Positions 5,244-50,400 of a stretch of 64,000 nucleotides of DNA are shown piece by piece. The notes under the pieces were generated by a model. The model was not told where the DNA came from, ran no database searches, and was given only the letters and a program-made list of their open reading frames with translations. Made by a program: the position numbers and the translations under genes. Origin of the DNA: an uncultured Gemmatimonadales bacterium. GTDB taxonomy: Bacteria > Gemmatimonadota > Gemmatimonadetes > Gemmatimonadales > GWC2-71-9. Within the stretch, counting starts at the first letter, position 1, and the number at the start of each line of letters is the position of its first letter. The stretch spans positions 39,431 to 103,430 of the forward strand of contig CAWHMT010000004.1 of assembly GCA_963830455.1 (NCBI GenBank), read 5' to 3'.

Positions 5244-6233
<990 letters not shown>

Positions 6234-17293: not shown

Positions 17294-17366
17294 TTGCCCC
17301 TCCTGGGATCGAACCAGGACTCTCCTGATCCAGAGTCAGGCGTGTTGCCAGTTACACCAAGGGGCA
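17294..17366 (-). tRNA. tRNA-Gln (anticodon CUG)
   Basis: Hand-folded cloverleaf: UGCCCCU UG GUGU AACUGGCA ACAC G CCUGA CUCUGGA UCAGG AGAGU CCUGG UUCGAUC CCAGG AGGGGCA A. Has the U1-A72 pair typical of tRNA-Gln. No encoded CCA. Confidence 0.9.
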
Positions 17367-17371
17367 GCGAA

Positions 17372-17444
17372 TGGAGCTGAGGGGGCTCGAACCCCTGACC
17401 TCCTGGGTGCGATCCAGGCGCTCTCCCAGCTGAGCTACAGCCCC
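17372..17444 (-). tRNA. tRNA-Ala (anticodon CGC)
   Basis: Hand-folded: GGGGCUG UA GCUC AGCUGGGA GAGC G CCUGG AUCGCAC CCAGG AGGUC AGGGG UUCGAGC CCCCU CAGCUCC A. The G3:U70 identity pair is present. No encoded CCA. It lies 5 nt upstream of tRNA-Gln. Confidence 0.9.
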
Positions 17445-22060: not shown

Positions 22061-23870
22061 GGCGTCGCATGTACCCCATTTGCTTGTCCGGCGGCCCCAT
22101 CGTCAGCAGGTACTCGCCCGGCGCCGGAGGCGTGAACTCGACGTCGTAGGTCTCTCCCACCGCGATCCGCTTGCGGGCGGGACCCACCACGGCGAGCGAC
22201 GCCGGCAGATTCTCGCCGTCCTTGGCCAACGGCCGCCAGGTCAGCACCGTCGAGTCGCGACGCGCCGCAAACACGACCCGCTGCGCGGGGCCGATGTTCA
22301 CGAACCGCAGCCGGTGCGGTACGCCGGCGGCCAGCTCGAGCGGTGGCGCGGTGCTGTCGCCGTTCACGACGAGCCGCGCCGGAGTCTGCGGTCCGTCCCA
22401 TCCGACCACGAACACGTGATCGGTGTTTGGATCGAACCGGCGGCCCGGCTCTAGCACCACGATCGCCCCATAGAGCCCCGACGTCATCTGCTCGACATCG
22501 TTGAGGTGCGTGTGATACATGAACGTGCCCGCCCGCGGCAGTGTGAGCCGCGCGGTGAACGAATCACGCGCCGCAATGATGGGCGCGAGTCGCGCACTCA
22601 GACCGCTCCAACCCGCCACGCCATCCGAAAAGCTCTCGAGCTCGATCCCGTGCCAATGGATTGCCGTCGCTTCAGCCAGGCGGTTCACGACCGTGACGTC
22701 GGTCGGCTCGTTCTGCGTCAGGATCAGCGTCGATCCCGGGATCTCCACCGAGTCCGCCGCCGGCGGCGTGTCGCCGCTTTGCAGCACGAACCCCAATCTG
22801 CGAGGGGCATAGCTGCGACTCGGCGCCTCATTCACGAACAGATGCAGGCGGCGCGGGTTTGCCCGCGCCGGCTCGACCCATCCCCGCCCCGGCCGCACCG
22901 TGATGCCGAGGACCAGGCCCGCCATGTGCTTGCCGGGATCCAGCGCGTGCATGTCGTCCTGCCGGGCGTGAGGCTCGAGCCGGGCGTCCGGAGAAACCAC
23001 GTGGAACGTGATGTGACAGTGGAACAACCAGTTCCCCGGCCGGCTTGCCTGCCACGCCATGCGCATCGTCTCGCCGGGGCTCATGTCTTCCGTTACGACG
23101 ACCCGGGGCTCTTCGGCCGGCAACACGCTGTCGCGCAGGAAGGTGCCGTGGGACTCGACGCGGAAGTAGAACCCGTGCAGGTGCATCGGGTGGTTCCGCG
23201 ACGTGCCGTTAATGATGCGCCAGCGCAGACTGTCGCCCACCGTGGCCGTGATCCGTTCCGTGTAGGGCCACGACTTCCCGTTGATGGCCAGCGCATTGGG
23301 GTAGGTGACGGAGTCCCGCGGCTCCCCCCAGATGTCCATCACGAAGATGCGATCGTCGGTGCGCGCTCCCACGGCGTCGATCACGAATGCGCCGGTGAGC
23401 TGCTCGCGCTCGCGAATGTCGTAGTCGATCGTGCCGAGGGTCGCCCAGTACAGATAGGTCCCCGCTGAGCCCGCCGCGAATCGCACCGTGCGAGTCTCGC
23501 CCGGCGGCACGGCGACGCTGTCGTTGGTGGCGGCGGGCTTCGTGGTGAGACCGTGCACGTAGATGGTCGAGTCGGCGAGGGCGTTGCGAACCGTCGCGAC
23601 AATCGTCGTGCCGGTCGGGACGCGGATCAGAGGACCGGGAACCTGGGGTGCGTGGCCCTCCTCGGCGAAGGCCGTGACGTCGGTGAAGGGACCGTCTTTC
23701 GCCTCGGGGTACCAGCGCGCCATGCGCACGACGAGGCGGATCGTGAGCACGCCGTGGCGCAGCTCGCCGGCGGGAGCGCGGTTGTCGTTGGGATGGACCG
23801 TCGGGGGGGGGAGCGGCGGCAGGAGCCCGAGCACCGTGCCGGCGAGTGCCGCGGCGAAGAGCCGCGCCAC
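22047..23870 (-). CDS. multicopper oxidase (three cupredoxin domains), secreted
   Basis: GTG start 23870 overlaps the upstream stop by 1 nt; signal ARLFAAALAGTVLGLLPP. Copper motifs HWHGIELES, HPMHLHGFYF, LFHCHITFH. The N-terminal about 210 aa of track ORF 22047-24512 is rejected. Confidence 0.8.
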   Translation of the reverse strand: MARLFAAALAGTVLGLLPPLPPPTVHPNDNRAPAGELRHGVLTIRLVVRMARWYPEAKDGPFTDVTAFAEEGHAPQVPGPLIRVPTGTTIVATVRNALADSTIYVHGLTTKPAATNDSVAVPPGETRTVRFAAGSAGTYLYWATLGTIDYDIREREQLTGAFVIDAVGARTDDRIFVMDIWGEPRDSVTYPNALAINGKSWPYTERITATVGDSLRWRIINGTSRNHPMHLHGFYFRVESHGTFLRDSVLPAEEPRVVVTEDMSPGETMRMAWQASRPGNWLFHCHITFHVVSPDARLEPHARQDDMHALDPGKHMAGLVLGITVRPGRGWVEPARANPRRLHLFVNEAPSRSYAPRRLGFVLQSGDTPPAADSVEIPGSTLILTQNEPTDVTVVNRLAEATAIHWHGIELESFSDGVAGWSGLSARLAPIIAARDSFTARLTLPRAGTFMYHTHLNDVEQMTSGLYGAIVVLEPGRRFDPNTDHVFVVGWDGPQTPARLVVNGDSTAPPLELAAGVPHRLRFVNIGPAQRVVFAARRDSTVLTWRPLAKDGENLPASLAVVGPARKRIAVGETYDVEFTPPAPGEYLLTMGPPDKQMGYMRRLIVR

Positions 23871-24322
23871 TACCGCATCACCGTCGCGGCCACCAACGCT
23901 AGAAGGGCAAACACTCCTGCGACCGTCGCGAAGATCGCTTGGCGTTTGCGCAGGCCGGTAAACGACTCGGGCAGCTCTCCGCGCGCGTCCACCTCGAGCC
24001 TCCCCAGTCGCGCGGCGGTCGGCATCACGATACCGATCGCGACGAGCGCGCCGAGCAAACCCAGTGCCTGCATCGCCAGCAGCCACGACGGCACCGTCGC
24101 CGCTCTGAAGTACGGCCCCGACAGGACGAACCCGCTCACCACCACGAGCACCGCGCCCGTCCCGACGAGGTTGCGCGTGATGACCGCCATGATCCGGTAG
24201 ACTGCGAGCCGTTGCTCGGGCGGGAAGTACTTCGCGGTGATGCCGCTGAGCATGACGGCGAGCCCGCCTCCCAGCCAGGCGACGAATCCCATGTCGTGCA
24301 GAAACAGCCAGAAGCCTCTCAT
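23870..24322 (-). CDS. hypothetical 4-TM membrane protein (co-transcribed with the multicopper oxidase)
   Basis: Start at ATG 24322 (MRGFWLFLHDMGFVAWLGGGLAVML...). Four hydrophobic helices. 4-nt overlap with DUF2203 gene. Confidence 0.55.
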   Translation of the reverse strand: MRGFWLFLHDMGFVAWLGGGLAVMLSGITAKYFPPEQRLAVYRIMAVITRNLVGTGAVLVVVSGFVLSGPYFRAATVPSWLLAMQALGLLGALVAIGIVMPTAARLGRLEVDARGELPESFTGLRKRQAIFATVAGVFALLALVAATVMR

Positions 24323-24732
24323 GTGCGGCTGAGCACGTCGGGGAGCGGCTGGCGGCCGGCAAAGCCGGCGTCGAGCTCGTGCCAGTGCGTGATGCGATCC
24401 TCGCCAGACTTCCAGCACCACAGGATTTCGCGCTCGTCCAAGCGGCCGTGAAAATCGACGAGCCCCTCGTCAAAGCCCTTGAACTCGCAGCCGACCTGCT
24501 CCAGCTCGCCAAGGAAGCCGTTGATCTTCGCGGCGGCGGTGTCGATCTGGGCCTTCAGGTTGAGCTGTTCCTGCGACTCGCCCCACTCGGGACGGGCCTT
24601 GGACGCCACGAGCTCGTACTGAGCGACGAGATCCTTCCACTGGGGATAGACGGACATGATGTCCTGCACGACCCGCTTAACGAGGGGAAGAGTGCGGTTG
24701 GCTTCGGCGAGAGTGAAGGATCTGTGAGCCAC
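24319..24732 (-). CDS. DUF2203 domain-containing protein
   Basis: 137 aa. MAHRSFTLAEANRTLPLVKRVVQDI...GCEFKGFDEGLVDFHG...ILWCWKSGEDRITHWHE. Confidence 0.75.
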   Translation of the reverse strand: MAHRSFTLAEANRTLPLVKRVVQDIMSVYPQWKDLVAQYELVASKARPEWGESQEQLNLKAQIDTAAAKINGFLGELEQVGCEFKGFDEGLVDFHGRLDEREILWCWKSGEDRITHWHELDAGFAGRQPLPDVLSRT

Positions 24733-24746
24733 GGGAGCAAAGCTAA

Positions 24747-24810
24747 GGCGCGGACATGCAAAAACTAGGCGACAGACGCACCGCGGTCATCGGGCCACCG
24801 TCAACGGGAC
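24747..24810. repeat. palindromic-element arm, copy A (forward orientation)
   Basis: GGCGCGGACATGCAAAAACTAGGCGACAGACGCACCGCGGTCATCGGGCCACCGTCAACGGGAC. It ends 4 nt before the CBS stop codon and is the inverted partner of 25224-25276. Confidence 0.8.
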
Positions 24811-24814
24811 AACC

Positions 24815-25216
24815 CTACCTGACAACGATTCCCTGCACCTCCTCAGGATGGGGAATGAATCCCACGACCCTCTTTTCTCCATCCAAAACGACAATCGTGG
24901 ACCGCACATGATGGTCGCTGGGATCAAGCTGCTTTGCGACCTTAAAGCCCTTCATCTCAGTATCCGGTTTCACAACGGGCGTATCGGTGCGAACGTGATC
25001 AGCCGCGGAGCAATCGGTCGGGTCGTGGCCTGCGCCCACACATCGGGCCACGATGTCACGGTCGGAGATGGTGCCCATGTAACGACGATCTTTGGGGTTA
25101 TCGACCACCGGCACCACGGAAATGTTCTTGACGCGCATGAGCGCCGCCACTTCGGACGATGTCGCGCCCGCCGCAGCGACTACAGGATCCGCAATCATTA
25201 CTTCCGATGCACGCAT
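24815..25216 (-). CDS. CBS domain-containing protein
   Basis: 133 aa. Tandem CBS pattern (MRASEVMIADPVVAAAGATSSEVAALMRVKNISVVPVVD ... GTISDRDIV). Confidence 0.8.
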   Translation of the reverse strand: MRASEVMIADPVVAAAGATSSEVAALMRVKNISVVPVVDNPKDRRYMGTISDRDIVARCVGAGHDPTDCSAADHVRTDTPVVKPDTEMKGFKVAKQLDPSDHHVRSTIVVLDGEKRVVGFIPHPEEVQGIVVR

Positions 25217-25223
25217 CAGGTTA

Positions 25224-25276
25224 TCCCGTTGACGGATGACTGTGGACCGCGGTGCGTCTGTGGCCTAGCCTTTGCC
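25224..25276. repeat. palindromic-element arm, copy B (reverse orientation)
   Basis: TCCCGTTGACGGATGACTGTGGACCGCGGTGCGTCTGTGGCCTAGCCTTTGCC. Its reverse complement shares perfect 17-nt (ACAGACGCACCGCGGTC) and 11-nt (CGTCAACGGGA) blocks with copy A. It abuts the patatin stop codon and starts 7 nt upstream of the CBS start. Confidence 0.8.
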
Positions 25277-26103
25277 TATCCTAAAGCCTTTTTGGTTGCC
25301 TGGTAGCCCATCTCCACATGCTCCTGCACGCGGTCGACGGCAAACGTCGCTTCGGCTTCCGCGACCGCGCGCACGTACACCAGCCGCGGGCCCCCCCCCT
25401 GCTTCGGCCACTCCGCGAGCGCGCGTTGCGTCTGGTCCGCCATCATGATCCGCAGCGCCTCGCCGTGCCTGCGTACGACATTGGGGATCCGCGGCCTGGG
25501 TCCGTCCACCGGGCGCTCATCGAATCCGGGACCGACGTCGACCGCAACGAATAGGTCCGCGTCGGGCTCGAGTGCGCGCGCCGCCTCCAGTGGCAGCACG
25601 GCGCGCAGTCCGCCGTCAGCGAGACGCCGGCCGTCTGTTTCGAGCGGCGGGAAGTACAGCGGCAGAGCGCAGGAAGCGTACAAGGCATCACTCAGCTCGA
25701 TGTCACGCCGCTCCGGCCCGCCGAGCAGCAGCAGCTCTCCGGTGTCGACGTCGACCGCCGTTACGGTGAGCGGGATGCGCAGGTACTCGAAGCGCGTCTT
25801 CGGCACGATGCGAGCGATGGCCCGTCTGAGCCCGGACGCCGGAAACAGGCTGCGGGAAAACAGGCCCATGATGAGCACTCTGGGATCGAACGGCGCGATG
25901 TCCTCGCGACGCAGCCCCATGGCGCGGCGCCGAACCTGATCGAACGGCATCCCGGATGCAAGCGCCGCGCCGACGACAGAGCCCATCGACGTCGCGACGA
26001 TGCGACTGGGAACAAGATTGGCCTGCTCGAGGGCTCGAAACGCACCGGCGTGAGCAAGCGCTTTCGCTCCGCCGCCCGACAAGACCAGAACGACTTTACT
26101 CAC
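25276..26103 (-). CDS. patatin-like phospholipase
   Basis: 275 aa. Oxyanion motif LSGGGAKALAHAG and nucleophile elbow GTSMGS-type (ATSMGSVVGA). Confidence 0.85.
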   Translation of the reverse strand: MSKVVLVLSGGGAKALAHAGAFRALEQANLVPSRIVATSMGSVVGAALASGMPFDQVRRRAMGLRREDIAPFDPRVLIMGLFSRSLFPASGLRRAIARIVPKTRFEYLRIPLTVTAVDVDTGELLLLGGPERRDIELSDALYASCALPLYFPPLETDGRRLADGGLRAVLPLEAARALEPDADLFVAVDVGPGFDERPVDGPRPRIPNVVRRHGEALRIMMADQTQRALAEWPKQGGGPRLVYVRAVAEAEATFAVDRVQEHVEMGYQATKKALG

Positions 26104-26593
26104 CCTTGCCCTGGTCGAAGCGGCGTTCCATCACGCGATTGGCGCGCCGTTTCGCGGCCCGCTCGTAGCGGCGCTTTTCATCAGGCGTCTCGGGTACGAT
26201 CGGCGGGACCTCCGTCGGCCGGCCGTTCTCATCGAGCGCGACATATGTGACATAGCACGAATTGGTGTGGCGCCGGTCGCCCGACAGCACGTTCTCGGCC
26301 AGCACTTTCACCCCGACTTCCATTGAGGTCTTGCCCGCGAAGTTCACGCGCGCCAGCGCGGTCACCAGCTCGCCGACGTGGATCGGCTCGCGGAAGTCGA
26401 CCTTGTCCACCGAGACCGTGACACAGGAGCGATGCGAGTGGCGGATCGCCGCGACCGCGGCCACACGATCCACCAGCGCCAGAATGTGACCGCCGAACAC
26501 ATTGCCCATGACGTTTGCGTGATGCGGCATCATGAGCTCGGTGAGCGTGGCCTCGGATTCGCGCGGGTGACGGCCCTTGGGGGGGGGCGCCAT
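26096..26593 (-). CDS. acyl-CoA thioesterase (hotdog fold)
   Basis: Start chosen at ATG 26593 (MAPPPKGRHPRESEATLTELMMPHHANVMGNVFGGHILALVD), overlapping the nadE TGA by 1 nt. Confidence 0.8.
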   Translation of the reverse strand: MAPPPKGRHPRESEATLTELMMPHHANVMGNVFGGHILALVDRVAAVAAIRHSHRSCVTVSVDKVDFREPIHVGELVTALARVNFAGKTSMEVGVKVLAENVLSGDRRHTNSCYVTYVALDENGRPTEVPPIVPETPDEKRRYERAAKRRANRVMERRFDQGKGE

Positions 26594-28386
26594 CAGTAGT
26601 CCACCGGTCTCAGATAGAACTCCCCAATCGCCGTCTGTGACACGACCGCGACCGTGGGCAAGCGCCGCTTCCAATGGGTGGAATCGAGGCGCTTACGCAC
26701 GATGTCGACGGCCTCCTTGCCGAAGCCCTTCGGCTCCTCGCCGCGGATCAAATGGTAGAGGACGCGGTCCGCGATCGCGTACGACACGCCCAGGTCGCCT
26801 TCGTCCGTCTGGCCTTTGATGAGATCGGCCGTCGCGGGCTTGTCGACGATTGCTTCCGGCACCCCCACGTGTCGCGCCAGTTCCCACACCTGCGTCTTGA
26901 ACAGATCGCCCAGAGGATTCACCGGCGGCGCATCGTCGCCGTGCCAGGTGAAGTAGCCGAGCAAGCGCTCCGATTTGTTGCTGGTGCCGAGCGGCAGCGC
27001 TTTGTGCAGGGCGGAGAGATCGAACAGGACGATCATGCGCTCGCGCGCCATGATGTTGCCGAGGCGGTGCGGATCCGCGCCGCCGATCTGCTTGATGTAG
27101 CCGTCGACTGCGCCGGAGATGTCGATCGTGACGGATTGGATACCGAGCTTGTCGATGACGAGTTGCGCGTGGCCGAGACTGTCGGGACTCGAGGTGCGGT
27201 ACGGCATGCGCACCCCGATCACGTTTTCAGGACCCAGGGCCTCCGCGGCGAGGAACGCGGTGAGCGCCGAATCGACACCGCCCGACAGCCCGACCAATCC
27301 CTTCGTGAAGCCGCGGCGGCGGAGCACTTCGTCCTTGAGAAAACTCACTAACCAACGCCTGGTCAGCTCCGGGTCGATTCGGAGCGCATCTGCCTCATTG
27401 AGTCTTGAGGCGTGCAAGGGCGTGGAACTGCGTGAAGCGGTGTGGGGAGTGGGGCTGCCGTTCGTGGCGGGGTCGAATTTCACTTTCTGCGAATGCTTGT
27501 CGCCGCTCAGGCTCTTGGTCAGCACGGGCAACGCACTCTGCAGATCGGACAGCAACGGCGAGTCGGAGCGCGCGGTCGTGAGCGAGTCGAGATCGATCTC
27601 GGCCGTGACCAGCGCTTCCTCGAACAGCGGCCCGCGCGCGATGACCCTGCCGGTCGGATCGATGACGGCTGACGCTCCCGGGAAGCCCTTGCCGCCCTCG
27701 AACCCCACGAGATTGGCCAGGGCGACGAACACGCCGTGTTCCTCGGCGATGCCGCGCACGATCCGCTCCCAGCGCACGACCGATGCGGGCAGCGTCTCGT
27801 CCTTGCAGTCGGCCTCCTCACCCAGCCCGCGTGCCGGCGACGCGCTCGGCACAATCAAAAGCTGCGCTCCCTCGAGAGCGGCGACGGTCGCGGCCAGCGA
27901 GTGCCACGCATCTTCGCAAATCAGAATCGCTGCCTTCCCCCCCCAGCCGGTCTCGAACGAGCGCACACCGTCCTGCCCGCGATCGACGAACCGCTCTTCA
28001 TCGAAGACCCCGTAGGTCGGCAGGAACACCTTGCGATGGACGTGACGCACCTCCGGCTGCTTCCCGCTCTCCCCCAGCGTCACGTACAGTCCGGAATTGT
28101 AGATGTGGTTCTGGAATCGCTCGTAGAATCCGACCACTACGTCGATCGGGGGACCGTTGTAAGCGGCCGCGAGATCGCGAGCCAGTGTGCCGGCCGTGAC
28201 CGCCAGCTCCTGCACGCCGCCTTCGACGAAGTAGCCCGACGTGGCCGTCTCGGGAAAGACGACCAGGTCGGGCTTGGGATCGAGCTGCGCCGCCTGGCTC
28301 ACGACCGCGCCGATGCGCGCGACGTTCTGGGCGTACTCACCCTTGGTAGGACGGAACTGTGCCAGCGCGATGCGGATGTGCGCCAT
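26593..28386 (-). CDS. nadE: glutamine-dependent NAD+ synthetase (CN-hydrolase + NAD synthetase domains)
   Basis: 597 aa. Nitrilase-type domain (LVVFPETATSGY, AILICEDAWH) and PP-loop GLSGGVDSALTA. The two domains are joined by an unusually long Ser/Pro/Thr linker. Confidence 0.9.
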   Translation of the reverse strand: MAHIRIALAQFRPTKGEYAQNVARIGAVVSQAAQLDPKPDLVVFPETATSGYFVEGGVQELAVTAGTLARDLAAAYNGPPIDVVVGFYERFQNHIYNSGLYVTLGESGKQPEVRHVHRKVFLPTYGVFDEERFVDRGQDGVRSFETGWGGKAAILICEDAWHSLAATVAALEGAQLLIVPSASPARGLGEEADCKDETLPASVVRWERIVRGIAEEHGVFVALANLVGFEGGKGFPGASAVIDPTGRVIARGPLFEEALVTAEIDLDSLTTARSDSPLLSDLQSALPVLTKSLSGDKHSQKVKFDPATNGSPTPHTASRSSTPLHASRLNEADALRIDPELTRRWLVSFLKDEVLRRRGFTKGLVGLSGGVDSALTAFLAAEALGPENVIGVRMPYRTSSPDSLGHAQLVIDKLGIQSVTIDISGAVDGYIKQIGGADPHRLGNIMARERMIVLFDLSALHKALPLGTSNKSERLLGYFTWHGDDAPPVNPLGDLFKTQVWELARHVGVPEAIVDKPATADLIKGQTDEGDLGVSYAIADRVLYHLIRGEEPKGFGKEAVDIVRKRLDSTHWKRRLPTVAVVSQTAIGEFYLRPVDY

Positions 28387-28410
28387 GCTGGAAAGATATT
28401 AGCTTCCAGC

Positions 28411-28464
28411 AGGCGATGGAGTTCGCCTTCAACCGCCCTGTTCACGGGCTAATGACTCCTACCT
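28411..28464 (+). promoter_or_regulatory. fluoride riboswitch (crcB RNA motif)
   Basis: AGGCGAUGGAGUUCGCCUUCAACCGCCCUGUUCACGGGCUAAUGACUCCUACC. It matches the conserved GGCGAUGGnnUUCGCC ... AACCGCC ... CUAAUGAnUCCUAC pattern and sits directly upstream of crcB. Confidence 0.85.
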
Positions 28465-28489
28465 GAACCACTTACGGCAGGAGTTTTTG
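28456..28489 (+). terminator. riboswitch expression platform: terminator/RBS-sequestering hairpin
   Basis: CTCCTACC (28456-63) pairs with GGCAGGAG (28476-83) with one mismatch, followed by TTTTT. The 5' arm overlaps the conserved 3' end of the aptamer and the 3' arm contains the AGGAG RBS. Confidence 0.5.
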
Positions 28490-34208: not shown

Positions 34209-35990
34209 CACTCATCGGGAACGGGACGATCGGCGCGCTCATCGATCCCGCGGGCGAGATCACGTGGGCCTGTTTCCCGCGCTTCGATGGCGATCCCATG
34301 TTCTGCTCCCTGCTCAAGCCCCCCCGCCCCCCGCGCGGGGGGCCGGACGACATCGGATTCTTCGCCGTCGAGCTGCTCGACTGTGCCACGACCGAGCAGC
34401 GCTACCTGCAAAACACACCAGTGGTGGTCACGCGCCTGACCGACGCCGCCGGCGGCGCTGTCGAAATCACTGATTTCGCACCGCGCTTCGAGCACCACGG
34501 CCGGATCTTCTGTCCGATGATGCTGGTGCGGCGCGTGCAGCGCATCGCGGGACACCCCCGCATTCGCGTGCGCGCGCGGCCGGCGCAGAACTACGGCCAG
34601 CCGCTGACCGGCACGACCTCCGGCAGCAACCACATTCGCTACATCGGGAACGGCCTCGTGCTCCGGCTCACCAGCGACGCACCCATCACCGCGGTCCTCG
34701 AGGAGAATCCGTTCTTCGTCGACGACGCCGTGACCCTCGTCCTGGGTCCGGACGAAACGCTCCAGGATCGCGCCGACGACGTCGGCCAGCGCTTCCTGTC
34801 CGAGACCATGGCGTACTGGCGCGAACTGGGTCCGCTCGCTCGCCATTCCGTTCGAGTGGCAGGATGCCGTGATCCGCGCGGCCATCACGTTGAAGCTGAA
34901 CGTGTTCGAGGACACCGGCGCGATCATTGCGGCCGTCACGACCTCCATTCCCGAATCGGCGGACACCAGTCGGAACTGGGATTACCGCTATTGCTGGCTG
35001 CGCGACGCGTATTTCGTGGTGAACGCCCTGAACCGGCTCGGCGCGACGCAGACGATGGAGCGCTACCTGGGCTTCATTCGCAACGTCGTCGCCGACGGCA
35101 CCGACCGGCCACTCGATCCCGTGTACACCGTCACAGGACACCGGCTGCCGCCCGAGCGCGTCGTGGAGTCGCTGCCCGGCTATCGCGGCATCGGCCCCGT
35201 GCGCGTGGGCAATCAGGCCTCCGAGCAGTCGCAGCACGACGTGTACGGCTCGTCTATCCTCGCCGCGACCCATGTCTTTTACGACCGCCGGCTGATCCGG
35301 CAGGGCGACGAAGCGCTGTTCCGGCGCCTCGAGCCGCTGGGGGAGCGTGCCTACCAGTTGTACGACAAGCCCGACGCCGGTTTGTGGGAGCTGCGCGGCA
35401 GCACGCACGTCCATACCTTCTCGGCCGTGATGTGCTGGGTGGGGTGCGAGCGCCTGGGTCGCATCGCCACACACCTCGGCCTCACCGACCGCGCCACGCA
35501 CTGGTGCCAGCGCGCCACCGAGATGCACGAGGTGATTTCCCGCCGGGCCTGGAATGAAAAGCTGGGCACCTTCGTCGCCACGTTCGACGGCGACACCCTC
35601 GACGCCAGCCTGCTGCAGCTGAACGAGCTGTTCTTCGTCGCGGACGGCGACCCGCGCTTCGTCGCGACCGTGCGCGCTATCGGCAAGCAGCTCAGGCGGG
35701 GGGACTTCGTGTTTCGGTATACCACGCCGGACGATTTCGGCACTCCGTCGAACGCGTTTCTGGTCTGCTCGTTCTGGTACATCAACGCGCTTGCCGCGAT
35801 CGGTGATCGAGATGAAGCCCGCAGGATCTTCGAGTACCTCCTGGCATGCCGCAACCGGCACGGCTTGCTGGCTGAGCACATCGATCCGAAGACGCGCGAG
35901 CAGTGGGGAAACTTCGTGCAGACGTACAGCATGGTGGGACTGGTCAGCTCGGCGATACGACTGTCACAGAGGTGGGACCAGGCTTTCTAA
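34190..35990 (+). pseudogene. GH15 glycoside hydrolase (glucoamylase/trehalase-type); one frameshift
   Basis: GTG 34190: VASLDLALIGNGTIGALIDPAGEITWACFPRFDGDPMF...ETMAYWRE. Shift near 34823-34830 gives WVRSLAIPFEWQDAVIRAAITLKL...SRNWDYRYCWLRDAYF... and continues to the stop at 35988-90. Confidence 0.75.
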
Positions 35991-35992
35991 AA

Positions 35993-36108
35993 GCGGGGCA
36001 ATGCAACGGCTAGGCCACAGACGCACCGCGGGCCCCAGTCATCAGTAAACGGGACTAGCCCCGCAACGATTGTCCCGTTGACGTAGACTAGTCTTTGCAT
36101 GTCCGCGC
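35993..36108. repeat. palindromic element copy C (two inverted arms, 18-nt loop; right arm internally deleted)
   Basis: GCGGGGCAATGCAACGGCTAGGCCACAGACGCACCGCGGGCCCCAGTCATCAGTAAACGGGA - loop - TCCCGTTGACGTAGACTAGTCTTTGCATGTCCGCGC. It fills the gap between the convergent stops of GH15 (35990) and the tupA-like gene (36113). Confidence 0.8.
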
Positions 36109-36112
36109 TTTC

Positions 36113-36916
36113 CTACCATCGATCGACCTTTCCAGCATCCGGGATGAATAGTGGTTGACCGAATCTGGTCGTGCCGAATCTGCCCATGAGCTCCTGAGCT
36201 TCCGGCGATACAAAGAAATCGGCGAGCGCCCGCGCCGCCGGTCCGGCGTCCGGGACTTCCATGATGTGGTAGACGTTGTGGAACAGCGTGTCCCCTTCCA
36301 CCAGCGGCACCAGCTCGAGCTTCGCTTGCCAGACGAGAAACGTCCCGCGATCGCTGATCGTGTACGCGTGCTTCTCGTCGGCCATCTGCAGTGTGGCCGC
36401 CATGCCCTGCCCCGCCTCGACGTACCACCCACCGGGCGGCGGCGGCTCGAGCCCGGCGAGTCTCCAAAGCTTCTGCTCGAAGATGTGGGTCCCCGAGCGA
36501 TCGCCGCGCGAAACGAAGGGCGCGTGGGCGTCCGCCACCATGCGCAGCGCCGTCACGGGATCGTGCAGCCCCCGTAGTCTTGCCGGATCATTCGCAGGGC
36601 CGACAAACAAGAAATCATTGTGCATGACGATCCGCCGGCGCACGAAATTGCCCGAATCGACCTGGGCACGTTCGATCTCGGGCGCGTGCACGAGCACGAT
36701 CTCTGCGTCGCCGCGCCGCGCCATCGCGATCGCCTGCCCGGTTCCGACCGCGACGACTTTGACCTTGTAGCCGGTTCGCTGCTCAAACAGGGGGAGCAGC
36801 GAGTCCAGAAGGCCGGTGTCGCGCGTGGACGTTGTAGTGGCGAGAAGAACGTCCTGGCGCCGGGATGGCGCAGCGCACGACAGGAGCAGCAGTCCCGTTA
36901 ACCAGAGCCTGTTCAC
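36113..36916 (-). CDS. TupA-like (tungstate-type) periplasmic substrate-binding protein, lipoprotein
   Basis: 267 aa. Signal/lipobox LLLLSCAA. Hallmark LLATTTSTRDTGLLDSLLPLFE and KVVAVGTGQAIAMARRGDAEIVLVHAP. No adjacent permease or ATPase. Confidence 0.7.
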   Translation of the reverse strand: MNRLWLTGLLLLSCAAPSRRQDVLLATTTSTRDTGLLDSLLPLFEQRTGYKVKVVAVGTGQAIAMARRGDAEIVLVHAPEIERAQVDSGNFVRRRIVMHNDFLFVGPANDPARLRGLHDPVTALRMVADAHAPFVSRGDRSGTHIFEQKLWRLAGLEPPPPGGWYVEAGQGMAATLQMADEKHAYTISDRGTFLVWQAKLELVPLVEGDTLFHNVYHIMEVPDAGPAARALADFFVSPEAQELMGRFGTTRFGQPLFIPDAGKVDRW

Positions 36917-36956
36917 CGCTGTGCGTCTGCCTGCCTAGTTTTTGCACGTCCGCGCC
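36917..36956. repeat. palindromic-element arm, copy D (single, truncated)
   Basis: CCGCTGTGCGTCTGCCTGCCTAGTTTTTGCACGTCCGCGCC. It runs from the tupA-like GTG start (36916) into the trehalase 3' end. The element's own CTAG supplies the trehalase TAG stop (36935-37), giving the C-terminal ...ARTCKN. Confidence 0.7.
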
Positions 36957-38564
36957 TGCACTGGCATGGCGCAGAGTGCAAGTACGACTCCGTTGGTCCA
37001 CCCGAACCCATCCTGCGTCGGGTACTCTCCTCCGCCCGCCTTCCGGTTCGGATTGACGACGTCGTACTTCTCCATCATGCGCCCGGTCGCGCGATAGGTC
37101 CGCTGAATGAGATTGAGCCAGCGCGTGGCGGCCGTGTCGGCGAGATCATCGCGCCGATACCGCCGGACCCCTTCGATCGTGAGCCACTCGAGCGGCGGCC
37201 AGCCGTTGGGCGCATCCCACTGCTGCCCGGAGTTGAAGTTGGTCGTGACGAAACCGCCGGGCTTCAGGAACTCCGCTTCGAGCCTGGCCGCGGTGCGCAC
37301 GCCCTGGTCCGGGGTCGCGATGCCGAAGTAGAGTGGCGCCGCGGCGGCGAGCGACGGCCGATCGAGCACGCGCTCGCCCGAGCGCCAGCGGACATCGTAG
37401 AAGAACCCGCGCGTCGGGCTCGTACATCAGGTTTTGGATCGCCTGCTCGGCGCTCGTCCGCCAGCGGGTGAAGCGGCGCGCGACTTCCTCGTCCCCCGCT
37501 CCTTCTCGGAATGCCCGCAACGCCGCGATCACGCGCTCCGCATTATAAAGGAGGGAGTTGAGGTCAACGGGAAGAAGATCCGTGGTCTCGAGCGTGCGCA
37601 GGTCCTTGGGGTCGCGCATCCAGCGGCTCGAAAAGTCCCAGCCGCTCTCGGCGCTCGCCCGCACGTTGCGGTAGAAGCTCGCGCGCAGCGAATCGGGCAG
37701 CGTCATCCCGATTTCCACGTCGGGCCGGTACGATTCGGGCCGCGGCTCGTCCGAATCGTCCCAGTAGCGATTGAGTACCACACCCTCCGGCATCCGCACT
37801 GCTCGGCGATAGAACTGACCCGGCTTCAGTTGGTCCCCTCCATCCATCCAGAAGGCATACTCCTTCTCCAACGCGTCGAGATACGGGAGCGCCCGCGCCG
37901 TGTCGGTCGCGCTCGCGTACAGCGCCACCATCGCGGCGAAGTAGGGCGGCTGGCTGCGCGTCAGGTAGTACGTTCGGTTGCCGTTGGGAATGTGGCCGAG
38001 CGTCCGGATCAGATGCGCGAAGTTGTCCAGCATATGCTTCACGAGGTCGGTGTGACCGCTCTTCACCAGACCCTGCATCGTGAAATAACTGTCCCAGTAA
38101 TAGATCTCGCGGAATCGGCCGCCCGGGACGACATAGGGACTAGGGAGAGGGATGAGGGACGATTGCAGGTCGGTCGTGTCGGGTGGTCTCGTCAACACCG
38201 GCCAGAGCGCGTTGACGTGCGCTACCATCCCCTGCGAGGCGACGGTGCGATACCCGTCGCCCGCTGGTTGGGGCAACACGAAGTTCTGCTCGACGAACGT
38301 GCGCAACACAAATCCGGGCGCGCGACGCGCGGAATCGTAGCGCGCCTGAATCGCGCCCGGCAGCGCGCGGGGCCGCGCGTCGACGAACTCTTTCGAATCG
38401 GAAAAGATCCCCGACAACTGCACGTCCGAGAACAGCGCGCCGATGTCGTGCGCAGGATCATAGGCTGCTGGCCTGGCCGATGGACGGTCTGCCGGCGTGC
38501 AGGCAAGGACAAAGCAAAGCGCGGAAATGCAAAGACTAGACGCAGCAGACGCACCGCGGTCCAC
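36935..38564 (-). pseudogene. treA: periplasmic trehalase (GH37); one frameshift
   Basis: GTG 38564: VDRGASAASSLCISALCFVLAC (lipobox) ...FREIYYWDSYFTMQGL...SQPPYF...LMYEPDAR. Shift near 37400-37412 (GGG run) gives GFFYDVRWRSGERVLDRPSLAAAAPLYFG...SGQQWDAPNGWPPLEW...GGGEYPTQDGFGWTNGV. Confidence 0.75.
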
Positions 38565-38651
38565 GGTCCTGAGGTTACGGGATGGTCCCGTTGACCGATG
38601 ACTGTGCGTCCGCCGCTGCGTCTGTGCACCTAGCCTTTGCATGTCCCCGCC
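38519..38651. repeat. palindromic element copy E (two full inverted arms, 3-nt loop)
   Basis: GCGCGGAAATGCAAAGACTAGACGCAGCAGACGCACCGCGGTCCACGGTCCTGAGGTTACGGGA TGG TCCCGTTGACCGATGACTGTGCGTCCGCCGCTGCGTCTGTGCACCTAGCCTTTGCATGTCCCCGCC. It lies between the SSS stop (38656) and the trehalase 5' end. The left arm overlaps the predicted trehalase signal peptide. Confidence 0.8.
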
Positions 38652-38655
38652 TTTG

Positions 38656-40281
38656 TCAGGCAAACACGATCCACAGCACGCCAATGATGGCCACGAGTAG
38701 CACCGACAGCCCGATCTGGAACTTCCGATCGGCCGCGGTCTCGCCTTCCAGCAGAGCGGCGCCCCCTGGTCCGGCACGGACGTACGTGAGTCCCTCTGTC
38801 TTGTCAGCACTGGGCGGCGGCGTCGCCATGCTCACGACGAACAGCACGGCGGTGCAGATCACGAACAGCAACACGGCGTAGTGGAGGAAATTGATCGTCG
38901 CGATCCAGTGCCAGAGCGTCCCCGACTCGAGGCCGCCGGTCGCCTTGTTCGTCAGCTCGAGGACGAGCCGCAGCACGCCGAGAACGAGCCCGGTGATGAG
39001 CGATGCCATCGCCCCGGTGCCGTTAAGGCGGCGGAAGAACAGGCCGAGGAGGAAGCAGGCGGCGATGGGCGGCGCGATGTACGCCTGCACGCTCTGCAAG
39101 TAGATGTAGATCTGCGACGAGACGAACTTCATCAGCGGAATCCAGGCCAGCCCAAGGAACACCATGACCCCGGCGGAAATGCGGCCCACGCGCACGAGCT
39201 GCTGCTCGCTCGCGCCGGGACGCATCTTCTTGTAGACATCCCAGGTCAGGAGCGTCGAACACGCGTTGAACGCGGAGGCCAGGGAGCTCATCAGCGCCGC
39301 GAGCATGCCCGCGAGCACCAGGCCCTTGATGCCGTCCGGGAGCAGTCGCGTCACCAGCGTGGGATACGCGGAGTCAGGGTTGTTGCTGACATCGGAGAAC
39401 AGCGCCATCGCGACGATGCCCGGCAGCACGAAGATGAAAACGGGGAGAATCTTCAGGTAACCCGCGAAGATGGTTCCGGTGCGCGCCTGTTTGATGTTCT
39501 TGGCAGCGAGCACGCGTTGCACGATGTGTTGATCGGTACACCAATACCAAATTCCGAGAATCGGAGCTCCAAAGATGATTCCGGTCCATGGAAAGTCCGG
39601 ATGACTCGACGGTTTCCACATCGAGAAGAAGCCCGCAGGGACTTTGGCCTCGAGCCCGGCGATGCCGCCGACCCGCGACAGCCCGATTGCCATCAGGGTG
39701 ATGGAGCCGAGAATCAGCACGATGGCCTGCAGCACCTCGGTGTAGACCACGGCGCGCAGTCCGCCGAAGATCGTATACAGCCCGGTGATGACGATGAGGA
39801 CAATGGCCGCCGTGTAGAAATTCCACCCCGTCACCGCGCGAATCACGACCCCGCCGGCATACAGCGTAACGCTGATCTTCGTCAGGACGTAGCCAATGAC
39901 TGACACCCAGGTGAAATAAGTCCGCGACGCCGAGTTGTACCGCTTTTCCAGGAACTCCGGCATCGTGTAGACGCCGCTCTTCAGGTAAAAAGGAACGAAG
40001 AGCCAGCCGAGCAGCAGCAGGATGAGACAGGCGAGCCACTCGAAGTGCCCGACGGCGAGACCGCTGCCGGCGCCCGTGCCCGCCAGCCCCACGAGGTGCT
40101 CGCTCCCGATGTTGGACGCGAACAGGCTTGCGCCGACCGCGAACCACGCGACGTCGCGGCTCGCGAGGAAGTAGTCGGAGCTGACGGCCTTCTCTCTGCG
40201 CGCTGCCCACCACGCAATGCCGAACAGGATGAGGAAGTAGGCGGCGATGAACAGCAGATCGAAGAAGTGGAGATTGCTCAT
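38656..40281 (-). CDS. sodium:solute symporter (SSS/SGLT family)
   Basis: Start chosen at ATG 40281 (MSNLHFFDLLFIAAYFLILFGIAWWAARREK...). About 13-14 TM. SDYFLASRDVAWFAVGASLFASNIGSEHLVGLAG is typical of the SSS family. Confidence 0.85.
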   Translation of the reverse strand: MSNLHFFDLLFIAAYFLILFGIAWWAARREKAVSSDYFLASRDVAWFAVGASLFASNIGSEHLVGLAGTGAGSGLAVGHFEWLACLILLLLGWLFVPFYLKSGVYTMPEFLEKRYNSASRTYFTWVSVIGYVLTKISVTLYAGGVVIRAVTGWNFYTAAIVLIVITGLYTIFGGLRAVVYTEVLQAIVLILGSITLMAIGLSRVGGIAGLEAKVPAGFFSMWKPSSHPDFPWTGIIFGAPILGIWYWCTDQHIVQRVLAAKNIKQARTGTIFAGYLKILPVFIFVLPGIVAMALFSDVSNNPDSAYPTLVTRLLPDGIKGLVLAGMLAALMSSLASAFNACSTLLTWDVYKKMRPGASEQQLVRVGRISAGVMVFLGLAWIPLMKFVSSQIYIYLQSVQAYIAPPIAACFLLGLFFRRLNGTGAMASLITGLVLGVLRLVLELTNKATGGLESGTLWHWIATINFLHYAVLLFVICTAVLFVVSMATPPPSADKTEGLTYVRAGPGGAALLEGETAADRKFQIGLSVLLVAIIGVLWIVFA

Positions 40282-47418: not shown

Positions 47419-50400
47419 TTGCTGAAGGCGTACCAAGGAGGGGCGCAGCCATATGCGCCCCTCCTTCTGTTTCTCCTGTCGCTGAGCGCCGCCTGCTCCG
47501 AGAAACCACACGACACCGCTCCACCGCAGCCGGGCAGAGAACTCTTTACGCGCATGCCCTCCGGCTACACGGGCGTCACGTTTGCCAATCGTCTGAGCGA
47601 AACGCACGACTTCAATGTCTTCACCTACCGCAATTTCTATAACGGCGGCGGCGTCGCGCTCGGTGACCTGACCGGGGACGGCCTCCCCGAAATCGTCCTC
47701 ACCTCGAATCAGGACGGTCCGAAAGTCTATCTGAACCTTGGCCGGTTTCAGTTTCGAGACGTGACCGAAGCGGCGCGCGTCGTGGAGCGGGACCGCTGGA
47801 CGACGGGTGTCACGCTCGCCGACGTGAATGGCGACGGGAAGCTCGACATCTACGTGTGCCACGCCGGCGTGAAGCCCGGCTCGGCGCGCGCGAATACGCT
47901 CTACATCAATCAGGGCATGACCGACGGCGTCCCGCATTTCACGGAGATGGCAGCGCAGTACGGCCTGGCCGATACCGGGTACTCGACCCAGGCCGCCTTC
48001 TTCGACTACGACGGCGACGGCGACCTCGACATGTTCCTGATTCGCAACTCCCCGCGGCCCGTCGCGAGCATCGCCGTCAAGAACCAGCGCACCCAGCGCG
48101 ACCCGTTAGGCGGCCACGAGCTCTACCGGAACGACCACGGTCACTTCGTCGACGTCAGCGAGCGGGCGGGGATCTACGGGCCCACGATCGGGTTTGGATT
48201 GGGAATCGCGGTCGGAGACGTGAATCGCGACGGCCGCCCCGACGTCTACATCGCGAACGACTTCTTCGAGCGCGACTACCTCTATCTGAACAACGGGAGC
48301 GGGACGTTTCGGGAGGTCCTTGAGGACGCGCTGCCGGTCTCGAGTTATTTCTCGATGGGCGTCGACATCGCCGACATCGACAACGATGGCTGGCCCGATA
48401 TCTACACGAGCGACATGCTCCCCGAAGACGACTACCGCCTCAAGACGACGCAAGCGTTCGAGCCGTGGACGGTCTATGATGCCAAGACACGCGACGGATT
48501 CGACCACCAGCTCATGCGCAACATGCTGCAGCGCAACAACGGAAACGGCACGTTCAGCGACATCGCCTGGCAGGCAGGGGTCGCGCGCACCGACTGGAGC
48601 TGGGCCGCGCTGCTCGCCGACTTCGACCTCGACGGCAACAAGGACATCTTCGTCGCCAATGGTCTGTCCAGGGACGTGACGTCACAGGATTACATCGCAT
48701 TTCTGTCGAACGATCAAACCCTGCTTGCGGCGACGCGCGGTGGGAAGCAGCGGGTCGATTTCGAGAGCCTGATCGCGGCCATGAGCTCGACCAAGCTTTC
48801 CAACGTTGCGTTCCGCAATCGCGGAGACCTGGCGTTCAGCAACGTGAGCGCGGAGTGGGGACTCGATCAGCCGAGTTTCTCGAATGGTGCCGCGTACGGG
48901 GACCTGGATGGCGACGGCGCGCTCGATCTCGTGGTGAACAACGTGAACGACGAAGCGTTCGTCTACCGCAACAATGCCCGCTCGCAGCGTGTCGGGAACC
49001 GGTTTCTTCAGGTGCGCCTGGTCGGGAGCGGGAGCAATCCGTTCGCGGTCGGCGCGCACGTCACGGTGCGCGCCGGCGGTACCGAATTCGCTCAGGAGCT
49101 CCAGCCGACGCGCGGCTTTCAGTCGAGCGTTGACTACACACTGACGTTCGGCGTCGGTCAGGTGGACACGCTCGAATCGGTGATCGTGGACTGGCCCGAC
49201 GGAAAATCGACGATCGTGTCACCGGTCGTCGCCAATCGGCTGCTCACGCTCCGCGAGGAGAACACCCAGCGAACGCGGGGGGCGTTGCGGCGCGACCGCA
49301 CCGAGCTGCTGCATGACGTCACGGCCGAAGTGGGCCTCGATTTTGTCCACCGGGAGAACGCATTCGTCGATTTCGATCGTGAACCCCTCATGCCCCGTAT
49401 GGTTTCGACCGAGGGGCCGATCGTGACGGTGGGCGACGTCAATCGGGACGGGCTGGACGACTTCTTCATCGGTGGCGCCAAGGAGCAGCCGAGCGCCCTG
49501 TACGTGCAGCGGCCCAACGGCACGTTCACGTCCACAAATCAGGCGTTGTTCGCTCAAGATCAGATCGCCGAAGATCTGGGGGCGGCGTTCCTCGACGCCG
49601 ACGGGAATGGCACACTCGATCTCTACGTCGCGACAGGCGGGACGGAATTCTCCGCGCTCGCTCCAGCGCTCGAGGACCACCTCTACCTGGGGAACGGGCG
49701 GGGCGCGTTCACGAAAGCCGTTGATCTGCCGCCGCTGTTCAACAGCAATTCGCGCGTGGCGGTGTCGGGTGATTTCGTATTCGTCGCGGGGCGGGCGGTG
49801 CCGGGGCGCTACGGCGTCGATCCGAACAGTACTCTGCTCAAGCGAGACTCCGCCGGCCGGTTCACGGATGTCACCGCGCAAGCCGCTCCGGAGCTCGCGC
49901 ATATCGGCATGGTCAGCGACGCGCTCTGGGCCGACGTCGATGGGGATGGCCGGGACGATCTCGTGGTCGTGGGCGAGTGGATGCCTATCACGGTCTTTCA
50001 CAACACGGGAACCAAACTCGAGCGCGTCAAGACACGCGGGCTCGAGCAGAGCGCCGGATGGTGGAACAGGATCGTGGCGGGCGATTTCACCGGCGACGGC
50101 CGCGTCGACTTCGTCATCGGAAACGCAGGACTCAACTTTCGGCTGCACGCCACTGTCGATGAGCCCGCGCGCATGTATATCCGGGACTTCGACCACAACG
50201 GATTTCCAGAGCAGGTGCTCACGACGATCGAGCGGGGAAGCGAGGTGCCGGTCGCGCTGCGGGATGAGCTGACCGCCGTGCTGCCCTTTCTGCAACCGCG
50301 ATATCCAACGTACGTCGATTACGCGCGCCAGAGTGTGCGCGACGTTTTTGGCAGCGCGCTGGACAGCGCGCTCGTCAAGCGCGTCGACACCTTCGCGTCG

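Follow-up and report, generated by a model that had tools for sequence, protein, structure and literature searches.

Why does a complete small gene fill the space between the two arms of a long inverted repeat? The question arises in a 64,000-nt stretch of DNA (the window, hereafter) from an uncultured soil Gemmatimonadales bacterium (GenBank assembly GCA_963830455.1, contig CAWHMT010000004.1, positions 39,431 to 103,430), in which an open reading frame (ORF) for a CBS-domain protein stands between a patatin gene and a DUF2203 gene and is bracketed by two inverted arms. An initial annotation, made from the sequence alone, had offered three explanations, namely capture of the gene in the loop of a palindrome, a small cargo-carrying element, or a long-range RNA stem. 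We show here that the arms are inverted copies of intervening-sequence-type units belonging to a PF05635-associated repeat family, and that they are under constraint.

Layout of the CBS locus

The longest inverted repeat of the 64-kb window consists of two arms of 63 nt each, 24752-24814 and 25219-25281, which are 81% complementary and lie 404 nt apart. The space between them is occupied by the CBS ORF (24815-25216 on the minus strand; 402 nt, 133 amino acids, ATG start), whose product matches Pfam CBS with E = 1.8e-10 and has as its nearest solved relatives stand-alone CBS-pair proteins, e.g. Rv2626c. The initial annotation had described just such an inverted repeat around a complete 402-nt ORF, with perfect blocks of 17 and 11 nt, and this description holds: the 17-mer ACAGACGCACCGCGGTC is perfect in both arms (24772-24788 on the plus strand, 25245-25261 on the minus strand), as is the 11-mer CGTCAACGGGA. 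At up to three mismatches ACAGACGCACCGCGGTC has 5 matches in the window against 0.89 expected, a number reached in 0 of 100 shuffles. The arms of the window were located with an nhmmer profile built from copies of the arm, here called type 1, and 7 were found. Loci fetched from relatives carry L-numbers, and the set of DUF2203 relatives comprises 68 of them. The features of the locus are as follows.

25215-25285 (-): upstream (5′) type-1 arm in the sense of the mRNA (nhmmer E = 1.5e-18; inverted-repeat arm 25219-25281)
24815-25216 (-): CBS-pair protein gene (ORF; Pfam CBS; orthologues at the same position in L029-L084)
24743-24818 (+): downstream (3′) type-1 arm, outer-to-inner on the plus strand (nhmmer E = 1.2e-18; inverted-repeat arm 24752-24814)
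25276-26103 (-): patatin-like phospholipase gene, the upstream cistron (Pfam PF01734, 6e-33)
24319-24732 (-): DUF2203 gene, the downstream cistron (Pfam PF09969, 6e-37)

The Pfam matches PF01734 and PF09969 agree with the neighbours that had been named before. The upstream arm lies between the patatin stop codon (TAG, 25276-25278), which stands at the arm's outer edge, and the CBS start codon; the 3′-end of patatin takes the place of its outermost ~13 nt, and its inner end, ...GTCAACGGGATAACCTG, is immediately 5′ of the CBS ATG. The downstream arm lies between the CBS stop codon, which its inner end abuts, and the GTG start of DUF2203, a gene that begins 10 nt past the outer end of the arm. 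Contigs of 0.49 and 1.9 Mb in ENA carry identical CBS protein and neighbours. For two ENA contigs that share the CBS protein the gene calls differ for patatin (275 vs 236 amino acids) and DUF2203 (137 vs 112 amino acids), which suggests homopolymer-length differences between long-read assemblies; in the window a run of ~10 C is found within the patatin gene at 25389-25399.

The arms belong to a family associated with PF05635 genes

When 185,579 species genomes were scanned for a 22-nt core of the arm, 28 loci came up, every one of them in a Gemmatimonadales metagenome-assembled genome, and a metagenome scan added at least 120 loci. The type-1 unit is a ~75-nt repeat specific to soil Gemmatimonadales, and it occurs in four layouts: as a bracket around a PF05635 gene, as adjacent-arm palindromes of ~130-145 nt, as solo arms, and as brackets around unrelated genes. 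Among the matches listed, the metagenome copies recognized by the profile comprise 68 adjacent-arm palindromes, 47 solo arms and 9 split pairs. All 9 split pairs have 397-401 nt between their arms and, together with L001, L011 and L015, bracket one and the same 125-amino-acid gene. The locus is orthologous in all of them, with an ABC-2 permease gene on one side and mnmG/gidA on the other, and all these genes are on one strand. The product of this gene belongs to Pfam PF05635, '23S rRNA-intervening sequence protein' (E = 2e-30; an S23p/Avd-like four-helix bundle), and the right arm of the element encodes its last codons. Its best match in the PDB is Xanthomonas S23p (2GSC), which is described as a toroidal homopentamer (PMC4990558). 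Among the matches listed, full type-1 arms enclose genes of three kinds only, namely PF05635, CBS and a TupA-like binding protein, the last two being unrelated small resident genes that in the window lie 11 kb apart. At their inner end the CBS arms are of the palindrome subtype (GTCAACGGGACAACCC) and differ there from the PF05635 element.

The association with PF05635 extends beyond type 1. We fetched 80 loci of PF05635 relatives, and in the full-length Gemmatimonadales subset 46 of 53 genes lie between inverted repeats whose score exceeds that of every one of 212 shifted controls. PF05635 proteins at least 82% identical to that of L001 have type-1 arms. Those 60-72% identical to it, many of them at the mnmG locus (L266, L269, L273, L275-L277, L280, L316), have arms of a second family, type 2, which is also found around CBS. 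More distant paralogues have inverted arrays of other short tandem units, e.g. (GGCACGTC)n and (GGGGCTAAG)n, and bracketing may be a general property of the PF05635 gene family.

Several smaller observations concern the same genes and arms. In other paralogue groups and phyla (Planctomycetes, Patescibacteria; L286, L288, L289, L291, L298) the arrays that flank PF05635 genes consist of (GGGGCTAAG)n, (GGCACGTC)n, (GAGTTGTG)n or AT-rich (GTTGTAA)n. The type-2 elements at mnmG listed above contain, at ~2445-2490, AAAGGCACGGCA...TGCCGTGCCTTT, a strong hairpin with a T-rich run after it, placed past the left arm and before the PF05635 start codon. In L315 the hairpin is still present between the arms, and the PF05635 ORF has been lost. 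A solo type-1 arm directly follows a tRNA-like 3′-end (GGTTCGAGTCCCTCCGGTCGCAC) ~45 nt before the start of trigger factor in L008, L019 and L021, and the solo arm near the trigger-factor start is kept in several genomes.

The same gene is bracketed by a second arm family

In L029, L035, L040 and L052 the same two gaps on either side of CBS are filled by type-2 arms, which are built on GAGACGCC-like octamers. Those of L052 are 55 nt long, 84% complementary and 434 nt apart, and those of L035 are 45 nt long, 87% complementary and 422 nt apart; L041 has the downstream arm only. Taking both types together, 9 of the 10 arm-bearing CBS loci have both arms, of matched type and with their inner ends toward the gene. 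Elsewhere type-2 arms stand side by side as palindromes (L300, L306) or singly as solo arms, and in L315 they form a derivative that has no ORF. Arm types agree between the CBS and PF05635 loci of one genome in SMAG_U4524 (type 2; L040, L277), AG40 (type 2; L052, L316) and M3-S_metawrap_bin.258 (type 1; L058, decayed, and L229), and many genomes with a PF05635 bracket still have a compact CBS locus. To us the value of the finding is threefold: dispersed conserved arms are tied to the unexplained PF05635 family, small resident genes are bracketed again and again, one of them by two arm families, and compact, bracketed and lost states form a series.

Arms added around a resident gene

The gene order 4HBT thioesterase-patatin-CBS-DUF2203-DUF2269 is kept across Gemmatimonadales down to ~50% amino-acid identity, and more than 50 Gemmatimonadales genomes have CBS in this place, with patatin on one side and DUF2203 on the other, mostly without arms. 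The species of the window is not in the genome collection, where the best DUF2203 identity is 91%; most close relatives (78-91% DUF2203 identity) have compact, arm-free junctions, in which the patatin stop is followed after ~8 nt by the CBS ATG and the CBS stop after ~5-25 nt by the DUF2203 start. The carriers of type-1 arms around CBS are limited to the window's species (L097, L098), L031, L032, L033 and L039, with decayed remnants in L058. The arm junctions are identical among all type-1 carriers, and these are monophyletic in a CBS nucleotide tree; the type-1 bracket at CBS therefore arose once, in the ancestor of a sub-clade. Since CBS is resident at the same position and mostly arm-free, the arms were added around a resident gene, and the comparison of relatives indicates that CBS was in place long before them.

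This distribution contradicts the earlier idea that the gene was captured in the loop of a palindrome. The initial annotation had proposed to look for an uninterrupted palindrome in place of the gene at orthologous patatin/DUF2203 junctions; none of the 68 DUF2203 loci carries one, and the loci that have no CBS gene (L046, L065, L066, L075, L086) have no arms. It had also proposed to look for flanking direct repeats, and reading the flanks of filled and unfilled sites by eye revealed no consistent direct repeat that could be a target-site duplication. Type-2 arms do begin with TAG/CTA, perhaps only because they overlap stop codons. No unit of arms plus CBS was found at any other locus, and no arm-less, relocated or inverted CBS allele was found in four metagenome DNA runs, two of which contain the window's own species with arms and CBS intact. 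Of the proposal that the arms are terminal inverted repeats of a cargo-carrying element, one part stands, as the arms are inverted repeats of an element whose natural 'cargo' is the PF05635 gene. The other part does not, as arms and CBS occur together nowhere else, and neither a transposase nor a target-site duplication was found.

Two of the relatives have lost most or part of the gene. In L046 (4960-5000) an internal deletion has removed CBS almost completely, and in L053 (4806-5000) an in-frame internal deletion has left 53 N-terminal residues and the C-terminus, so that the CBS gene is dispensable in some lineages. We also note that the intergenic site 3′ of DUF2269 (L029-L060, ~5800-6100) is hypervariable among relatives: L058 and L035 have a full palindrome there, L046 half an element together with a mini-hairpin, L034 and L040 single arms made of CTGCTGCGT-type units, L052 a solo arm of type 2, and others nothing.

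A second bracket and the direction of change

The second bracket of the window encloses the TupA-like gene and is made up of the following features, listed with the palindrome nearby.

35985-36060 (+): full type-1 arm at the 3′-end of the GH15 gene, outer partner of the second bracket (nhmmer 1.5e-17)
36083-36112 (-): shortened extra arm (nhmmer 9e-4, hidden Markov model positions 8-37 only)
36113-36916 (-): TupA-like periplasmic binding-protein gene (PBP_like_2; Pfam PF12849, 1e-37)
36891-36957 (-): trehalase-side type-1 arm, partner of 35985-36060 (nhmmer 1.5e-10)
38513-38655 (.): adjacent-arm type-1 palindrome between the SSF symporter and trehalase genes (nhmmer 38513-38587 (+) and 38580-38655 (-))

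Read along the minus strand, the order is SSF symporter, the palindrome at 38513-38655, trehalase, arm 36891-36957 and the binding-protein gene, followed by 36083-36112, 35985-36060 and the 3′-end of the convergent GH15 gene. The binding-protein gene, homologues of which carry the name tungstate-binding protein, is thereby enclosed by arms 35985-36060 and 36891-36957. The latter looks solo in the window and was missing from the list in the initial annotation; its outer 22 nt code for the C-terminal end of trehalase and its stop codon, the stop being supplied by the invariant CTAG of the arm, and its inner half codes for the residues with which the signal peptide of the binding protein begins. 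Adjacent-arm copies had been reported at two loci and both exist, with the correction that the right arm of the copy at 36 kb has no middle part: the shortened arm 36083-36112 consists of the inner 16 nt and the outer 30 nt with the middle deleted, and it forms the reported local palindrome with 35985-36060. In the minimum free energy (MFE) fold of the 991-nt RNA of the second bracket, 64 long-range pairs join the two full arms.

In relatives, too, the binding-protein gene is an old resident, placed between trehalase and GH15 and 72-88% identical, and the locus is found in five states. It is compact and without arms in L324 and L325. In L319 and L326 only the outer ~24 nt of an arm are present, and these contain the ATG of the gene. 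A clean bracket is found in L322 (65-nt arms, 80% complementary, 775 nt apart) and also in L323, and the window has its bracket plus one extra shortened arm. Finally, in L005, L049, L120, L142, L148, L175 and L208 the gene is absent and the same two arms are adjacent, the GH15-side arm of these palindromes being orthologous to 35985-36060. The 'empty' palindrome at this one locus is best read, from these states, as a remnant left after the enclosed gene was lost. The initial annotation had taken adjacent arms for empty versions of the structure; here the direction is reversed, and the palindrome looks derived by gene loss. The two loci suggest an evolutionary series from a compact gene to a bracketed gene and, at one locus, on to loss of the gene with the arms left adjacent, which is opposite to the usual assumption that the empty palindrome comes first.

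The adjoining trehalase gene (36935-38810 on the minus strand) is split in the window into two overlapping ORFs, 37146-38810 and 36935-37369, and is a single ORF of 529-550 amino acids in relatives (L319, L321-L324). The split is a frameshift, either real or an assembly error.

Copy number and constraint

Among the matches listed, 189 type-1 elements collapse to ~15 orthologous loci, and the family is therefore low-copy and conserved in synteny, with no swarm of recent insertions. Codon-position GC gave too noisy a signal for the orientation of the genes around the elements. Between species the arms at the CBS locus are 71-88% identical and those at the PF05635 locus 75-78% identical, as against 44-54% at four-fold sites, which are saturated; the PF05635 protein retains ~90% amino-acid identity while its synonymous sites are saturated. 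Because arm copies retain locus-specific variants across species, their conservation does not come from homogenization within genomes. Judged by these comparisons, both the arms and the PF05635 protein are maintained by selection.

Pairing of the arms and a possible role for RNase III

The operon genes are all on one strand with tiny gaps in relatives, and no sigma-70-like promoter site was found in 23800-26800. The arms would be on the same transcript as patatin-CBS-DUF2203 and, lying ~400 nt apart, would pair to give an imperfect duplex of ~63 bp with the entire CBS cistron in its loop; such a duplex will form provided that one RNA covers the operon. In the predicted fold of the sense RNA 24735-25290 the arms make one long stem that closes the CBS cistron, in the MFE and the centroid structure alike, at -258.6 kcal/mol as compared with -213 ± 6 for shuffles (z = -7.5). 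A terminator scan gave 4 weak sites against 2.2 expected, one of them within the downstream arm, which we do not consider meaningful. Rfam gave no match for 24650-25350 up to E = 1, and for 35900-38750 a chance-level match only. A sigma-54-like reading of the arm motif TTGCC-N6-TTTGCAT was also considered and rejected, as the essential GG is TG.

We propose that this ~63-bp imperfect RNA duplex is cut by RNase III, which would release the CBS RNA, or that it gates CBS translation, and on the strength of the fold and of analogy we hold the chances of this proposal to be evenly balanced. By analogy with true intervening sequences, rRNA processing stalks and Correia elements the duplex would be an RNase III substrate, and cleavage on both sides of CBS at once would uncouple it from its neighbours while leaving its ends paired and protected. 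The alternative, gating of CBS translation by the duplex, is suggested because the ribosome-binding region of CBS is inside the predicted stem. If the stem is processed, a protein-coding cistron would be cut from an operon transcript in the way that rRNAs are.

Several results weigh against a conserved duplex. The complementarity of an arm to its own partner (0.778) is hardly distinguishable from that to the partners of other elements (0.762). Among 18 orthologous PF05635 brackets the RNAalifold covariation term is -0.05, and double changes occur at 4 of 38 consensus pairs, most pairs being invariant. G·U mismatches show no excess on the sense strand in 64 brackets (104 vs 104), nor after removal of redundancy (48 vs 42), and most arm mismatches are transversions. 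Solo arms at syntenic loci are conserved in up to 31 contigs among the matches listed, no partner for them was found within 3 kb, and a single arm has no self-structure, folding no better than shuffles (z ~0); these conserved, partnerless arms point to the arm sequence, and not the duplex, as the conserved unit. There is no PF05635 gene within the 64-kb window, and four RNA-labelled runs yielded only short contigs from relatives, at 90-95% identity, with no joints or ends, too little to count either way. The long-range stem suggested by the initial annotation is hence borne out as a predicted structure in an apparently promoter-less setting, and receives no backing from covariation or from a G·U strand bias. 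On the other side, the constant inverted geometry across unrelated arm families argues, from arrangement, that pairing or symmetric assembly matters.

As to how the arms came to stand on both sides of CBS, our best guess is that one arm came first and that a templated inverted copy was then made on the other side, because L041 has the downstream arm alone. Template switching during replication is a known route to an inverted copy (PMC8794818). The upstream CBS arm matches the arm at 36 kb at 90% and its own partner at 81%; the arms of the pair are thus not especially similar, and the copying, if any, is old.

Alternative explanations

As the main alternative, the arms might act as units of sequence, each being a ~75-nt DNA or RNA site for a factor in trans, for which the PF05635 pentamer is the candidate cognate; the stem would be incidental, and CBS with its two inverted sites would be a member of that factor's regulon. 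We consider this possible though somewhat unlikely, and it and an RNase III duplex are not mutually exclusive. Arm sequence is conserved far above neutral in paired and solo arms alike, and the solo arms without partner or self-structure, together with the lack of covariation and of G·U bias, are what isolated sites would leave. Arm family also tracks PF05635 type, from type 1 at 82% identity or more through type 2 at 60-72% to other arms in other paralogues, the protein is under strong purifying selection, and its solved homologue 2GSC is described as a toroidal homopentamer (PMC4990558). Against this, the arms are physically linked to the ORF, so that their co-divergence needs no functional specificity; some genomes have both arm types with, in the loci sampled, one PF05635 type at mnmG (L018/L277; L008/L276; L313/L229); and an inverted arrangement that recurs in unrelated arm families is explained more readily by pairing or symmetric assembly than by isolated sites. 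It also counts against such a factor that we know of no nucleic-acid binding by any PF05635 protein outside diversity-generating retroelements (DGR). A wider form of the idea joins the protein and the duplex: PF05635 proteins and arms would make up a general gene-bracketing system beyond rRNA, in which the cognate four-helix-bundle pentamer recognizes arms on both sides of small genes (its own, CBS and the TupA-like binding protein), excision or expression of the enclosed cistron is controlled at the RNA level, and loss of the enclosed gene is favoured and leaves 'empty' palindromes and solo arms behind. We regard this as improbable on present indications; if true, it would give the S23p family a first function and explain the source of rRNA intervening sequences.

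That the arms are selfish or neutral DNA, either halves of something like a MITE (a miniature transposable element with inverted repeats) or REP, or two decayed insertions, tolerated and without host function, would fit the palindromic, solo, shortened and internally deleted forms, the several arm types at the hypervariable site after DUF2269, the dispensability of CBS in some lineages (L046, L053) and the missing covariation. We nevertheless think it a rather poor prospect, as orthologous arms are far more alike than saturated four-fold sites, locus-specific variants kept across species speak against within-genome homogenization, the ~15 syntenic loci are unlike a recently active high-copy element, 9 of 10 arm-bearing CBS loci have both arms in matched type and orientation, and no transposase was found. 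It is very improbable that arms and CBS move together as a mobile cassette, or that CBS was captured into a pre-existing palindrome: the layout does resemble a composite element, and the element type at the PF05635 locus differs among close relatives, suggesting replacement of whole units, but CBS occupies its exact position in more than 50 genomes, mostly arm-free, it never occurs with arms elsewhere, orthologous junctions have no empty palindrome and CBS-less loci no arms, and same-species DNA runs contain no arm-less or relocated allele. A complete gene between inverted repeats could also be an invertible switch, with the repeats as recombination sites that flip CBS. This we give almost no credence, since CBS has the same orientation as its neighbours in 36 of 36 close relatives and in every bracketed copy, the four metagenome DNA runs contain no strand-changing joints, and no recombinase gene is found in the neighbourhood, where the genes are metabolic.

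Comparison with known systems

The initial annotation had stated that no element of this layout has been described, which is too strong, as ORF-containing intervening sequences (IVS) of 23S rRNA match it exactly (PMC4990558). The Coxiella IVS is a 428-nt 'selfish' element whose terminal inverted repeats pair in a stem of 28 bp, with an S23p ORF in its loop, tandem heptamers beside the ORF and RNase III cleavage mapped in the stem, and similar IVS are found in Leptospira, Brucella and Xanthomonas (PMC4990558). The elements described here share with them terminal inverted repeats, a long stem, a ~400-nt loop with a complete small ORF (PF05635/S23p in sister copies such as L001, L219 and others), short tandem repeats that adjoin the ORF, ORF-less versions and a total length of ~430-550 nt. 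They differ in that the CBS element lies between patatin and DUF2203 and not in helix 25 or 45 of an rRNA gene (Rfam finds no rRNA in the window), that the loop gene of the window is an old resident, CBS, and not S23p, that the arms are 63-75 nt as against 28 bp in Coxiella and are also dispersed as palindromes and solo units, and that RNase III excision is only predicted. Seen across the loci compared, then, the Gemmatimonadales elements depart from IVS in lying between protein genes, in having arms that occur without an ORF and in having arms that enclose other genes. The layout is real and unusual, yet it is not a new category and belongs to the intervening-sequence and palindromic-repeat kind. 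The role of the S23p/PF05635 protein and the origin of ORF-containing 23S rRNA IVS, known for more than 30 years, are not understood (PMC4990558). A family of unexplained function is now linked to conserved cis elements, which makes its role directly testable.

The rRNA operons offer a related precedent, as complementary flanks pair over hundreds to thousands of nucleotides into RNase III stalks, and cleavage of the stem frees the enclosed unit. The predicted long-range duplex formed by the flanks of an enclosed unit resembles such a stalk; unlike in rRNA, the enclosed unit is a protein-coding cistron and the flanks are copies of a dispersed repeat. With CREE, the Correia elements of Neisseria, and ERIC/MITE-type palindromes the arms share an intergenic position, a size of ~100-150 nt, inverted repeats and the existence of full and shortened forms (PMC2649163). 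RNase III both binds and cuts Correia elements; such palindromes are co-transcribed with their neighbours as RNA hairpins that RNase III binds or cuts, traits that are predicted only for the Gemmatimonadales arms (PMC2649163). CREE are, however, high-copy, with presence/absence polymorphism and TA target duplications, in contrast to the ~15 syntenic loci here (among the matches listed). We know of no CREE with a whole gene between its repeats.

Of the traits of MITEs, terminal inverted repeats and small size are present (~130-145 nt in adjacent-arm copies), whereas many copies with insertion polymorphism and an autonomous relative that encodes a transposase are absent, PF05635 not being a known transposase. 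As in REP/REPIN-RAYT systems, a gene present once and inherited vertically stands between inverted copies of a repeat, and this repeat forms adjacent inverted doublets elsewhere; here, though, the flanked gene encodes a four-helix-bundle protein and not a Y1 (IS200/IS605-like) transposase, the ~75-nt units are not hairpins and the family is low-copy. Small promoter-less genes with imperfect palindromic sites recall integron cassettes and their attC sites, all the more at the binding-protein locus, where two arms in direct orientation stand on either side of the gene. There is no integrase, however, the genes are syntenic residents and not mobile, and attC is a whole palindrome after each gene, not one split around it. 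No Rfam model for the arm element was found, and in the literature, which was covered in part, we found no papers on repeat-bracketed PF05635 genes outside rRNA or on palindromic repeats of Gemmatimonadetes.

Other features of the window

A fluoride riboswitch is found at 28403-28468 (+) (Rfam RF01734, 63 bits), adjoining the start of the divergently transcribed NAD synthase gene 26593-28386, and two adjoining tRNA genes are found at 17294-17444 (-) (Rfam RF00005, 62-63 bits each). Diverged families of ~45-65-nt direct repeats lie within several long ORFs at 47700-50600, 55700-56950, 59600-60450 and 61700-63750. They are rich in GAC/GGC codons (Asp/Gly-rich, calcium-binding-repeat-like) and include two paralogous stretches ~13.96 kb apart with 70-77% identity.

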